64,000 nt of DNA, taken from the sequence record EF437941, one strand, 5' to 3'. The notes below the pieces were generated by a model. The model had not been told where the DNA came from and made no database searches. It saw nothing but the letters and a program-made list of their open reading frames with translations. The position numbers and the translations under genes are program-made. This DNA is from Escherichia phage Phi1. Shown here piece by piece: positions 34,060 to 59,490 of this stretch (the stretch's first letter is position 1; each line of letters opens with the position of its first letter).

Positions 34060-34226
34060 TATTCGACAACCTCAAAACATTTATCACCAGGAAGAATAGC
34101 CCATTCTATGCCGTATTCATCCTCAACGTAGTAGCAAGCCCCATCATGTCGAGCATCATATACATCACCGACAACAAAGCTATCAGCTAGTTCAAAATCT
34201 ACAGCAACACATTTTAATTTGGTCAT
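34059..34226 (-). CDS. Small hypothetical protein
   Basis: Start placed at the internal Met (MTKLKCVAVD...) with GAGGA RBS, downstream of a promoter cassette. Confidence 0.4.
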   Translation of the reverse strand: MTKLKCVAVDFELADSFVVGDVYDARHDGACYYVEDEYGIEWAILPGDKCFEVVE

Positions 34227-55291: not shown

Positions 55292-55325
55292 AGGGGAAGC
55301 CTTTCGGCCTCCCCTTCTTTTTATT
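55292..55325 (+). terminator. Rho-independent terminator after t
   Basis: AGGGGAAGCC-TTTC-GGCCTCCCCT hairpin followed by TCTTTTTATT. Confidence 0.65.
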
Positions 55326-55569
55326 GACGCATAGAAGCCCCTGAATCACATTTTGACGCTGTATGATGAAAACAGGTAGCGTACCAGTCATCGGCTTGTT
55401 TGTCTTCGTCAGAAAACGCGTAATTTCGTTGTATGCCGTTTTCTACTTTGACCAGTGCAATGGCTGTTTCTGGAAGATCGATCAATCGTACAAAATCACC
55501 ATCTTCCCACTCTACACGAGCAATATCATAACCCATCTCAAAATAAACAATCGCTTGTTCTAATTTCAT
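55321..55569 (-). CDS. Small hypothetical protein
   Basis: 82 aa ORF; no recognisable similarity to AsiA. Confidence 0.4.
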   Translation of the reverse strand: MKLEQAIVYFEMGYDIARVEWEDGDFVRLIDLPETAIALVKVENGIQRNYAFSDEDKQADDWYATCFHHTASKCDSGASMRQ

Positions 55570-56348: not shown

Positions 56349-56693
56349 TTACAGATGAAAACCTGTTACGATCACCGCATCGATCATACCGCTAGGAATA
56401 AACGGTTCGCCCTCTTTTATTTCAACTTTGAATTGATGCCATTTCGCTAATACTTCTTCCGGTACACCCAGCGATTCGGCGTCTGCTTTAGTTTCATCCA
56501 TAATCCAACTAGGCTGCATGAGAGCATAGTTTACATAGTCCATTTCTGTGGTCATGTCATCAATGTTAATATATTTGCAATTGACGCGTTTCAGAATTTC
56601 AAATTCTTTATTGTCAACCTGTACCATGTATAATTCAGTAGTTTCTGGAATCAGTTCCCACACAATCAGTACATTTTTCATAGTTCGCCTCAC
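56349..56693 (-). CDS. Hypothetical protein
   Basis: 114 aa ORF overlapping the upstream gene by 4 nt. Confidence 0.45.
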   Translation of the reverse strand: MRRTMKNVLIVWELIPETTELYMVQVDNKEFEILKRVNCKYINIDDMTTEMDYVNYALMQPSWIMDETKADAESLGVPEEVLAKWHQFKVEIKEGEPFIPSGMIDAVIVTGFHL

Positions 56694-57058
56694 TTAACAA
56701 AGATTTTCTTTAATGCTTTCAGGATCGTTGCTTCCGGCGCTTCTTCCGGTGGAGGAAGCAATTCTACCACTTCCTCTTCCAACTCGATATAGTCTACCAG
56801 ATATTCTACATAGAATGCAAGTGCTTCCATGAAATTAGATGCTACATCCGATTCGCCACACGCGCCCACATGCATTGTATAAACATCACTGCGATCAAGT
56901 TTGTGGATGCTTCCCAGATAGTTTCGGTTATACCAGACTTCCCACACTTTCAACTTTCCTGTTTTGGTTGCTGTTTTATAATCCGTTTCATAATGATGCA
57001 ATTGACGTTGCAAATCATTGATAATAACACATTTTTCGTAATTGTTTTGAATTTCCAT
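56690..57058 (-). CDS. Hypothetical protein
   Basis: 122 aa ORF. Confidence 0.45.
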   Translation of the reverse strand: MEIQNNYEKCVIINDLQRQLHHYETDYKTATKTGKLKVWEVWYNRNYLGSIHKLDRSDVYTMHVGACGESDVASNFMEALAFYVEYLVDYIELEEEVVELLPPPEEAPEATILKALKKIFVK

Positions 57059-57068
57059 GATGTAATCC

Positions 57069-57260
57069 TCACTTATCGTTAAGAAGTTCTAAAACTTTCT
57101 GCCGTACTTTGTCAATATTAGTTGATTCAAAAACTGTACGGTATCCCCAACTTTGACCGTATGATCGCGAGCAATCCCCATATCCCCATTGTTCAACCTG
57201 ATAGTATTCAAGGAATGGGTGCTGCCGAACTATGATACCATCGCGATTAAAAATTACCAT
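57069..57260 (-). CDS. Small hypothetical protein
   Basis: 63 aa with GAGGA RBS immediately after the triple repeat. Confidence 0.45.
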   Translation of the reverse strand: MVIFNRDGIIVRQHPFLEYYQVEQWGYGDCSRSYGQSWGYRTVFESTNIDKVRQKVLELLNDK

Positions 57261-57274
57261 AATATAATCCTCAC

Positions 57275-57355
57275 GTCAACAACTTATTTTCGGTTGTACT
57301 TGTCAACAACTTATTTTCGGTTGTACTTGTCAACAACTTATTTTCGGTTGTACTT
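57275..57355. repeat. Perfect 3 x 27-bp direct tandem repeat
   Basis: GTCAACAACTTATTTTCGGTTGTACTT three times; on the minus strand each unit is AAGTACAACCGAAAATAAGTTGTTGAC. Confidence 0.9.
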
Positions 57356-57619
57356 CTGCCACTTTCGGTAATACTGCTTGTAATATTGTTTAATGTTTGG
57401 TGGTTCGTCACTATACATGTTATCAACCATCATGTCAATAAGACCTTCCGGTGTTTGATAGTTACCCGCTCGAATGAGTTCCTTAATCAAAAGATCTTGT
57501 GTCGCTTTATACTTGACAATAACAACTGTCTTTTCTGCCTTTCCAATTCCGATCCGGTCGTTAGCTCTCATAGCATCCCACCAATCTTTTTTAAACTTCA
57601 TGTTGTTAAATTTCATCAT
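57338..57619 (-). CDS. Basic hypothetical protein whose 3-prime end lies in the tandem repeat
   Basis: 93 aa; the C-terminal KYNRK and stop codon are encoded by the first repeat unit encountered on the minus strand. Confidence 0.45.
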   Translation of the reverse strand: MMKFNNMKFKKDWWDAMRANDRIGIGKAEKTVVIVKYKATQDLLIKELIRAGNYQTPEGLIDMMVDNMYSDEPPNIKQYYKQYYRKWQKYNRK

Positions 57620-58420
57620 TTAACCCTTCTTATATTCGCAAACATATTGAGTACCATAATCATAGCTAATGCGACCTTTCTCGATTACTTCAAAGCGGAT
57701 TTCATCGTTTTCCCCTACCCACATTTTGTACTCGTTGAAGTATCCTGCTACATCCGGTTTGCTCATACCAACAACCATATTTTTATATTGTTTGCTGTGT
57801 GTCAGATTTGATTTAAACACTTCGCGCTCATCAACATATACGAAAGAAGACAATTCACCTTCGGTCATGGTCATTTTCAGCTTGCCGCCCTTGTTGCCAT
57901 AAGTAGAGTTGCCATACAATGGATCTTTGCGGCTGTCTGTTTCAATACCATCAATGATTTTCCATGTAAATTTTGCAATGCACTGATAAGTGATAGATCC
58001 AGAGATTTTCTCTTCTTTCTTCTGTTCTTCCACCACTTTTGCTTCGTGTTTCGGTTGTTCTTCTTCAACCTTCACAGAAGTCTCTGAATCGCTTTCTGAC
58101 GCGGTTTCTTCTTTAGGTAATACATTCATCAAGTTTTGGATTTGAGCGTTGTATACAGCCTCCAGTGGCTGAATCTGCCCGATATTGATCATTGTATCAC
58201 GAACAGTTTTATTCCAGTTGCGTTGCTCTTGTTTAAGAGACGGATCAATCTTAACAGCCTTAACATATACCTCATGAAGTTTAGAATCAAGTGCTGAGAT
58301 TGACTCATTAGCACAAATAAACTTCTCTGATTTGGTAGTAGCTTTAGCGCAATCAAAGGACGCAGCATTAGCACCGAAAGTAGTAGCAGAAAGAACGATA
58401 GCAGCGATAATGTTTTTCAT
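57620..58420 (-). CDS. Secreted DUF1311/LprI-like protein
   Basis: Signal peptide (MKNIIAAIVLSATTFGANA), then FDCAKA...E.FIC...LD..L...Y...EQR.W pattern, an acidic linker and a C-terminal domain. Confidence 0.45.
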   Translation of the reverse strand: MKNIIAAIVLSATTFGANAASFDCAKATTKSEKFICANESISALDSKLHEVYVKAVKIDPSLKQEQRNWNKTVRDTMINIGQIQPLEAVYNAQIQNLMNVLPKEETASESDSETSVKVEEEQPKHEAKVVEEQKKEEKISGSITYQCIAKFTWKIIDGIETDSRKDPLYGNSTYGNKGGKLKMTMTEGELSSFVYVDEREVFKSNLTHSKQYKNMVVGMSKPDVAGYFNEYKMWVGENDEIRFEVIEKGRISYDYGTQYVCEYKKG

Positions 58421-58456: not shown

Positions 58457-58486
58457 ATCTTACTACTCCCTTAATCCGGTGTCAAC
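58457..58486 (-). promoter_or_regulatory. Early promoter cassette (TTGACA-N17-TAAGAT)
   Basis: Conserved cassette upstream of the secreted-protein gene. Confidence 0.45.
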
Positions 58487-58492
58487 CACTTT

Positions 58493-58648
58493 TTAAATTT
58501 CTTCTACAGTAAAGTCTTCAATGTTGTTGTGCTCGGCGAACGTTGCTAGACCAGCATCCCATGCATCATCCTCAGAGAAGAATACACCGTAACGTTCATA
58601 TCCTTTAGCGCCTTCAAATTTAACCATTAATTTGTGAGTATGTTTCAT
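58493..58648 (-). CDS. Small hypothetical protein (51 aa)
   Basis: Start at the internal Met (MKHTHKLMV...) with GGAG RBS; the track ORF runs through the promoter. Confidence 0.4.
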   Translation of the reverse strand: MKHTHKLMVKFEGAKGYERYGVFFSEDDAWDAGLATFAEHNNIEDFTVEEI

Positions 58649-58679
58649 TTTGATTCTCCTTCGTTGTCTTGATGAGTTT

Positions 58680-58709
58680 AGTATAGGGGATCGCCGATCC
58701 CCTGTCAAC
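58680..58709 (-). promoter_or_regulatory. Early promoter cassette (TTGACA-N17-TATACT) with GATC palindrome
   Basis: Spacer AGGGGATCGGCGATCCCCT. Confidence 0.55.
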
Positions 58710-58719
58710 TATTTTTAAA

Positions 58720-58980
58720 CTATTTTCGCCATTCACCGGAAACGATGAAGTTTGTAAAGTGATTGTGGTCCGTGATAATGTCATTAAGTACCATATGCGG
58801 ATATGCTTTAGTGTAATCACGTTTACGATCAGTCATCCAGCCAACGAAAGTCGGTGCAAAGTACGGCACACCGTCAGACGATGCCATATTAAACCCTTTA
58901 TCAGCCATAAATGCAGCCGCCCTAAGATTTTTAATTGAAGTAGTGCGACTAATTTCAAAAACTTTATCGGTAAAATTCAT
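58720..58980 (-). CDS. Hypothetical protein
   Basis: Start placed at the internal Met (MNFTDKV...). Confidence 0.4.
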   Translation of the reverse strand: MNFTDKVFEISRTTSIKNLRAAAFMADKGFNMASSDGVPYFAPTFVGWMTDRKRDYTKAYPHMVLNDIITDHNHFTNFIVSGEWRK

Positions 58981-58981
58981 T

Positions 58982-59194
58982 TTAATAAGCCCCCACTCGT
59001 GCATTAATGCGCATTTTCTGCATAGCCATGATCTGGTTTACTGCTTCTTCTTTGCGTTTTTGCGTGATAACGTGACCAGATTCCGCAAACTCTCCCGCAA
59101 CTTCTTCTACGATCTCGCGAACTTGAGAACGTCCAAAGATGCGGTTTCCTTCGTAGCTCATAAATTCAGTCACTACTTGCTCAATAGATTTCAT
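58982..59194 (-). CDS. Small hypothetical protein
   Basis: 70 aa with GGAG RBS downstream of a promoter cassette. Confidence 0.45.
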   Translation of the reverse strand: MKSIEQVVTEFMSYEGNRIFGRSQVREIVEEVAGEFAESGHVITQKRKEEAVNQIMAMQKMRINARVGAY

Positions 59195-59227: not shown

Positions 59228-59257
59228 ATGTTAATACTCCCATTTCTTTACGTCAAC
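59228..59257 (-). promoter_or_regulatory. Early promoter cassette (TTGACG-N17-TAACAT)
   Basis: Conserved cassette with the palindrome GGGAGTATTAACATACTCCC. Confidence 0.4.
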
Positions 59258-59259
59258 AA

Positions 59260-59490
59260 CTATTTTAAATTATTTTCGACCTTCATCCATTCCGCGTATT
59301 CTTGCGCGGCTACTTTCGGATTTAGTCCGTCTTCGTACATTGCTTCAAGTAATTCTTCGTCGGTGGGCTTATACCCTAGATAAGCCTCCACCTGATTTTT
59401 CCAAATTTTATACCAGTTCATATTATCACCAATCAAGAGCGCGTGTCTCTGCGTCTTCCCATGCTTGATCCATAACAGCCTTGAAAACAT
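59260..59490 (-). CDS. Small hypothetical protein (start uncertain)
   Basis: Track ORF; overlaps the upstream gene, so the real start is probably the internal Met (MNWYKIW...). Confidence 0.35.
   Translation of the reverse strand: MFSRLLWIKHGKTQRHALLIGDNMNWYKIWKNQVEAYLGYKPTDEELLEAMYEDGLNPKVAAQEYAEWMKVENNLK

Follow-up and report, generated by a model that had tools for sequence, protein, structure and literature searches.

At positions 57275-57355 of the window, by which we mean the whole 64-kb stretch of DNA analysed here, a 27-bp sequence occurs three times in succession, across the end of one small gene and up to the ribosome binding site of the next. Is this array the trace of a recent event in one phage lineage, an error of sequencing or assembly, or an element selected for its effect on the neighbouring genes? 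We favour, with a probability of roughly 0.7, a recent lineage-specific tandem expansion from one to three copies (+54 bp), located at the stop codon of a 93-aa gene and the relic -35 box of a promoter-early stem-loop (PeSL), in an early operon of a hyperplastic region.

Structure of the array

The array (57275..57355, minus strand with respect to transcription) consists of 3.0 perfect head-to-tail copies of the 27-bp unit GTCAACAACTTATTTTCGGTTGTACTT (plus strand), as found by direct reading of the sequence, by TRF and by a repeat search, in agreement with the three identical copies reported in the preliminary description. TRF gave a period of 27, 3.0 copies, 100% matches and a score of 162, and the array is the sole tandem repeat scoring above 50 in the 64-kb window. 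On the plus strand its flanks read C|G...T|C and extension by even one base is impossible on either side, so that there are exactly 3.0 copies and zero microhomology with the flanking DNA. Chance alone would place two further perfect copies next to a 27-mer in 64 kb with a probability of about 64000 x 4^-54, or approximately 2e-28.

In the direction of transcription, unit 1 covers 57355..57329, unit 2 57328..57302 and unit 3 57301..57275. Each reads AAG TAC AAC CGA AAA TAA followed by GTTGTTGAC, which can also be written AAGTACAACCGAAAATAA|GTTGTTGAC; it thus comprises the last five codons and the stop of the 93-aa ORF (which ends ...QKYNRK*) plus the 9 nt of GTTGTTGAC. The end of the array directly adjoins the GTGAGGATTATATT-ATG of a 63-aa gene, unchanged with respect to the single-copy relatives, where GTGAGGATTATATT (57261..57274, minus strand) contains the Shine-Dalgarno sequence GAGGA (57272..57268) and the spacer of that gene. 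The anatomy described beforehand, namely a gene end joined to a -35 box in an array that stops at a ribosome binding site and has no -10 element, is accurate as judged from the sequence, the ORF ends and a promoter scan.

Three -35-like hexamers are found on the minus strand. The ancestral one, TTGACG (57274..57279), is the relic of a PeSL -35 box, and the two others are new TTGACA hexamers lying at the junctions of units 1 and 2 (57328..57333, with no -10 partner) and of units 2 and 3 (57301..57306, with GTTGTT at 17 bp). The stop codon of the 93-aa gene and the start codon of the 63-aa gene are separated by 77 nt with the array and by 23 nt in single-copy genomes. This longer intercistronic spacer, with its two extra partnerless TTGACA hexamers, is the sole certain effect of the array.

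In frame 0, every unit of the array contains a stop codon. The +1 frame is open across the array (STTENKLLT three times) and forms part of a 51-aa mechanical ORF (57271-57426, minus strand). An extension of the upstream protein through the array by readthrough or frameshifting was rejected, given these frame 0 stops and the lack of any indication that the +1 frame is used.

Copy number in related phages

The locus matches phages of the genus Krischvirus (RB49-like T4-type myoviruses of the Straboviridae), and among the matches listed the closest is GEC-3S, with 99.1% identity over 1.3 kb. The best relatives are 96-97% identical over 25 kb and their matches reach the ends of the relatives' records, indicating that the window covers the final 64 kb of a Krischvirus genome.

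A direct count found one copy of the 27-bp unit in 31 out of 31 homologous loci, 11 of them in phage genomes of GenBank/IMG-VR and 20 in independent assemblies from ENA, Logan and NCBI; the latter were found by an exact-protein look-up, and three of the 20 are GenBank phages already sampled. Half of the assembly loci (10/20) encode a 93-aa protein identical to that of the window, and the gap between the two genes in these 20 loci is 23 nt, or 22 nt in one case. Ten GenBank relatives representing several Krischvirus species were also read base by base, and each harbors one copy. MIZ6, JSE, KFS-EC and ELT3 have, as their single copy, a sequence identical to the unit of the array. Moreover, the Krischvirus GenBank matches listed across the array are each exactly 54 bp shorter than the query, and among the 176 GenBank records that match the locus none ranks as a two- or three-copy version would. 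The comparison among relatives that had been proposed earlier thus gives a clear outcome, one copy in all 31 loci against three here, and the 31 loci, the 176 records and the identity of the unit to single-copy relatives together bear out the suggestion of a recent triplication. The perfect identity of the copies implies either an event younger than, or comparable in age to, the split from the closest sequenced relatives, or copies that are being homogenised.

An exact search with a junction 26-mer and 23-mer returned nothing in IMG/VR, metagenome and genome contigs. These absences carry little weight, since even the single-copy control turned up just once in IMG/VR and was absent from the metagenome collection. 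A gapped search of IMG/VR for two nearby AAGTTGTTGAC boxes gave 30 unrelated contigs, none of them T4-type (giant-virus MAGs and arrays of 72-bp period). Among these unrelated viral contigs, some carry long arrays of AAGTTGTTGAC at a 72-bp period, with 7-10 matches each, which may be CRISPR-like or of another kind.

An artefact of assembly or sequencing, where an assembler would have expanded a short periodic segment of a genome that is truly single-copy, is unlikely. The uniqueness of the array among the 31 loci read and the GenBank relatives and the perfect identity of its copies are what such an error would produce, as is, weakly, the absence of the junction from the three public collections, where the single-copy control is also nearly absent. 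However, the 81 bp of the array are below the length of an ordinary short read, the array is internal, about 6.7 kb from the end of the record, and the flanking 3.3 kb of coding sequence carries no other indel with respect to GEC-3S and none that breaks a frame. As a rule, tandem repeats are collapsed by assemblers, not expanded. On balance, the evidence points against an artefact.

A probable relic of an early promoter cassette

The nonanucleotide GTTGTTGAC has 12 sites in the window against 0.76 expected, all on one transcriptional strand, and outside the array all nine sites (9/9) belong to full promoter cassettes. These cassettes have a constant order: an A-rich stretch with an upstream stop codon, GTTGTTGAC as the -35 box, a TATAAT-like -10 box, the leader ACACACATACCGAAACGAA, then GGAGAATCAAA and an ATG; a hairpin of the GGGGATC...GATCCCC type lies in the spacer of most of the nine. 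They correspond to the PeSLs known from RB49 and phi1, which combine a strong sigma-70 early promoter with a terminator hairpin, are concentrated in hyperplastic regions and mediate modular shuffling of ORFans (PMC2839356; PMC4122927). GTTGTTGAC is therefore the -35 box of the PeSL early promoter cassettes of the genus.

At the array, the -35 box follows an AT-rich stretch with an upstream stop codon (GAAAATAA-GTTGTTGAC), as in a PeSL. The other parts of a cassette are missing: the promoter scan found no site in or beside the array and thus no -10 box 16-18 bp downstream, there is no inverted repeat of at least 8 nt and no terminator-like site that could represent the stem-loop, and the box is followed by GTGAGGATTATATT-ATG instead of the conserved leader and Shine-Dalgarno sequence (ACATACCGAAACGAA...GGAGAATCAAA-ATG). 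Because a stop codon and a -35 box are all that is left, with hairpin, -10 and conserved leader gone, the box of the array is best read as the relic of a decayed PeSL. The ACCGAAA shared by the unit and the PeSL leader had suggested a derivation of the unit from that leader; this was rejected, as the 7-mer has 27 strand hits, 16 of them in ordinary coding DNA.

The ancestral TTGACG (57274-57279) has a partner at 17 bp, TG-G-TAATTT, whose hexamer (57251-57256, minus strand) matches at 3/6 positions and lies in the first codons of the 63-aa ORF. Judged by its letters, this pair is a possible weak promoter for the downstream genes; it is below the threshold of the promoter scan, and the curated annotation of GEC-3S has no promoter there.

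The relic box is variable among the 31 loci, occurring as GTTGTTGAC, as TTTGTTGAC, with a 1-nt deletion or as TTGGC, and this drift argues against strong constraint. The TTGGC form is found in one metagenome-assembled Krischvirus, and the deletion (GTTTTGAC) in E26 and one Logan contig. In RB49-type genomes the upstream gene is present as a divergent allele, and homology with them resumes at ACAACCGAAAATAAGTTGTTGAC, so that the conserved patch also marks an allele-exchange boundary.

Flanking genes and operon context

The gene whose end is repeated (57338..57619, minus strand) codes for a 93-aa ORFan of phrog_15915, a PHROG family of unknown function; it is without a Pfam match and is annotated as a hypothetical protein in relatives (BN201_0262 in GEC-3S, RB49p261). 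Since its true stop codon (57340..57338) sits in unit 1, the triplication leaves this protein as it was. The cistron next downstream of the array (57069..57260, minus strand) codes for a 63-aa ORFan of phrog_6957 (BN201_0261 in GEC-3S, RB49p260), also with no Pfam match, of a PHROG family of unknown function and hypothetical in relatives. Both flanking proteins are thus unaltered by the array.

The nearest upstream promoter of the annotated early type, TTGACA-17-TAAGAT, is located ahead of a 266-aa gene (58457..58485, minus strand), which places the array inside a polycistronic early transcription unit, between its second and third cistrons. This unit extends to a bidirectional terminator next to the holin gene. 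The first cistron, directly upstream of the 93-aa gene (57620-58420, minus strand), codes for the 266-aa protein, which has a signal-peptide-like N-terminus and a match to the LprI lysozyme inhibitor domain (PF07007, 25.3 bits against a cutoff of 22); relatives have either this 266-aa allele or a 252-aa allele. Downstream of the 63-aa gene lies a 122-aa ORF (56690-57058, minus strand) for which context tables of related contigs give PF26821 (Phage_T4_Y16F); our Pfam scan lists nothing for it at E <= 0.01, and the annotation of RB49 notes a similarity to a T4 12.8-kDa protein of the asiA-motA region. The last gene of the operon (55321-55569, minus strand), which adjoins the holin terminator, codes for an 82-aa protein with a match to PF11195, Tad2-like (Thoeris anti-defence 2-like; 27.9 bits against a cutoff of 25, E 3.4e-06).

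Older, degenerate direct repeats (57363..57391, minus strand) are also present in the 3' end of the 93-aa gene, where the repeat search identified a 16-nt copy offset by 21 nt (81% identical) and two 12-nt units in tandem (83%). The pattern is visible in the end of the protein, ...KQYY KQYYRK WQ KYNRK*. These repeats suggest that earlier rounds of short duplication took place at the same spot.

Possible effects on expression

No promoter-like or terminator-like site was detected by the scan on either strand of the array, and no intrinsic terminator (a G+C-rich hairpin followed by a T-run) is present in 57200-57430. The formation of a new promoter from the unit junctions was ruled out, the -10 position of TTGACA being occupied by GTTGTT and the scan being negative. 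Folding of the mRNA leader is no more stable than that of shuffled sequences, with z of +0.49 for three copies and +0.94 for one copy, and the bases around the Shine-Dalgarno sequence are predicted to pair alike in the two cases. A terminator, an attenuator and an RNA structure sequestering the Shine-Dalgarno sequence were all ruled out by the site scan, the folds and the inverted-repeat search. Moreover, Rfam gave no match at E <= 1 in 56900-57800. At approximately 2.6 helical turns, the 27-bp period does not keep the boxes in phase.

Two roles had been envisaged for the array in the preliminary description. That of a tandem binding site finds no support, as the searches for a promoter, a terminator, an inverted repeat, an RNA structure and an Rfam match were all negative, the -35-like box drifts among relatives and the boxes are unphased. 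That of a spacing element stands in so far as the spacer does grow from 23 to 77 nt, with no sign, however, of selection for this length.

An adaptive cis-regulatory change, in which the 54-nt insertion was selected for an altered expression of the downstream early genes, appears distinctly unlikely. It could act by uncoupling translation of the 63-aa gene from that of the 93-aa gene, or through the new TTGACA hexamers if these altered RNA polymerase occupancy. The increase of the intercistronic distance and the creation of two perfect TTGACA hexamers are compatible with such a change, as is the presence in the operon of candidate counter-defence genes (Tad2-like and LprI-like). However, the new hexamers have no -10 partner and no promoter is called, the predicted Shine-Dalgarno pairing does not change with copy number, the 63-aa gene has its own Shine-Dalgarno sequence, and the array is present in one genome only, at a -35 relic that is not strictly conserved. 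The triplication is probably neutral or nearly so, a neutrality that we assume here, even though the two consensus TTGACA hexamers or the tripled spacing could, on sequence grounds, affect expression. It is highly doubtful that the triplication is non-neutral in the sense that the TTGACA boxes and the 54 nt retune the downstream ORFans, or that it has enlarged the PeSL-derived patch into a hotspot of cassette capture.

A strong sigma-70-like sequence, TTGACA-17-TATAGT (11/12), is present inside the 93-aa gene (57410-57438, minus strand), 55-85 nt upstream of the array. Both of its hexamers are kept in nine of the ten relatives read, among them RB49, whose divergent allele has a different spacer; in ELT3, TTGACA is replaced by TCGACA. 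Coding constraint could also explain this conservation. If the site were active, the array would fall in the 5' leader of its transcript.

Origin of the triplication

The recent tandem expansion that we favour most likely proceeded in two steps. A homology-independent duplication, by replication slippage, template switching or end-joining without microhomology, would first have given two copies, and the resulting 27-bp direct repeats would then have allowed slipped-strand mispairing or unequal homologous exchange to produce the third, in the setting of recombination-dependent replication. T4-type replication depends on recombination, and 27-bp direct repeats should therefore expand and contract easily. 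The zero microhomology at the borders of the array is atypical for simple slippage. A DNA hairpin driving slippage was ruled out, as the single-copy DNA forms only a 5-bp hairpin (-2.1 to -2.5 kcal/mol) that does not differ from those of shuffled sequences.

It had been proposed beforehand that the copies arose by slippage between promoter cassettes. This is not supported: no second cassette is involved, the borders lie off the cassette homology, there is no microhomology, and the added bases are entirely local. A related possibility, PeSL-mediated recombination by misaligned exchange of the relic -35 patch with another cassette or a mini-circle, is very improbable for similar reasons. The unit does include the PeSL -35 box, the upstream alleles of RB49 type and GEC-3S type regain homology at ACAACCGAAAATAAGTTGTTGAC, and PeSL-bounded cassette swaps occur within 2 kb (PMC2839356), but an exchange of this kind would import the flanks of the other cassette, whereas the new copies are wholly local sequence. 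In addition, only 9-14 nt are common to the true PeSLs, the unit borders fall outside the shared patch, and the events described move whole ORFs (PMC2839356).

Other polymorphisms in the genus

A whole-genome TRF search of GEC-3S identified a tandem duplication of 21 bp x 2.3 copies in BN201_0235 (133950-133997, 92% matches, score 82). At the corresponding place, about position 34148 (~34120-34170), the window has one 21-bp unit fewer than GEC-3S, a 7-aa in-frame difference, the protein reading DVYDARRDEYDARHDGA in GEC-3S and DVYDARHDGA in the window. With this second polymorphism between the two phages, short tandem duplications emerge as a recurring and unremarkable way in which members of the genus diverge.

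Larger differences from GEC-3S are also present, namely a 489-bp insertion at 58501 (58501-58989) and, abutting the GTTGTTGAC box at 59252-59260, a 516-bp deletion at 59259. Both are textbook PeSL-bounded swaps of whole ORFan cassettes, not noise.

Significance

The array matters little and neither opens nor settles a larger question. It can be used as a strain marker, being a PCR-size polymorphism that separates this phage from all sequenced relatives, and it provides a small, clean example of how a tandem repeat has expanded very recently in a hyperplastic region of T4 type, beside a fragment of a relic promoter cassette. If sequencing reads showed mixed copy numbers, it would become a simple readout of the rates of slippage or unequal exchange in Krischvirus. 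Were the triplication non-neutral after all, it would capture the amplification and recruitment of promoter-cassette fragments under way in T4-type hyperplastic regions, and the operon so retuned ends in a Tad2-like candidate anti-Thoeris gene.

Comparison with known systems

Like iterons and tandem operator arrays, the array is made of identical short direct units, each carrying a hexamer, TTGAC[A/G]. Unlike them, it has no associated binding protein, origin or regulated promoter, its 27-bp phasing is off the helical repeat, and a single site is present in all the relatives read (31 loci) where a conserved multiple one would be expected of an iteron.

With the PeSL cassettes the locus shares the 5' part, GTTGTTGAC directly behind a stop codon and with A-rich surroundings, as well as its position in a hyperplastic region with PeSL-bounded swaps nearby and the coincidence of the conserved patch with an allele-exchange boundary. 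It differs by the lack of a -10 box, a stem-loop and the conserved leader, and is thus a fragment and not a cassette. PeSL-mediated exchanges move whole ORF cassettes (PMC2839356), and neither of the PeSL papers (PMC2839356; PMC4122927) describes a cassette fragment duplicated in tandem. We found no literature on tandem duplications at PeSLs, and PMC2839356 makes no mention of tandem repeats, duplication or slippage.

The array resembles variable-number tandem repeats in its head-to-tail copies of a single unit, whose number differs among otherwise collinear relatives (three against one). Compared with short tandem duplications arising by slippage or unequal exchange, it differs in showing no border microhomology. 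A likeness exists within the genus to the duplication in BN201_0235 of GEC-3S: both consist of head-to-tail local copies that vary in number between close relatives, both have a unit length that is a multiple of 3, and both lie in a region of small ORFans of a hyperplastic segment. The array has three perfect copies against 2.3 diverged ones, and it spans a stop codon and intergenic DNA, leaving the protein unchanged, whereas the BN201_0235 duplication is intragenic. Taken against these systems, the array looks like an ordinary, recent and strain-specific tandem expansion, an instance of a well-known kind of polymorphism.
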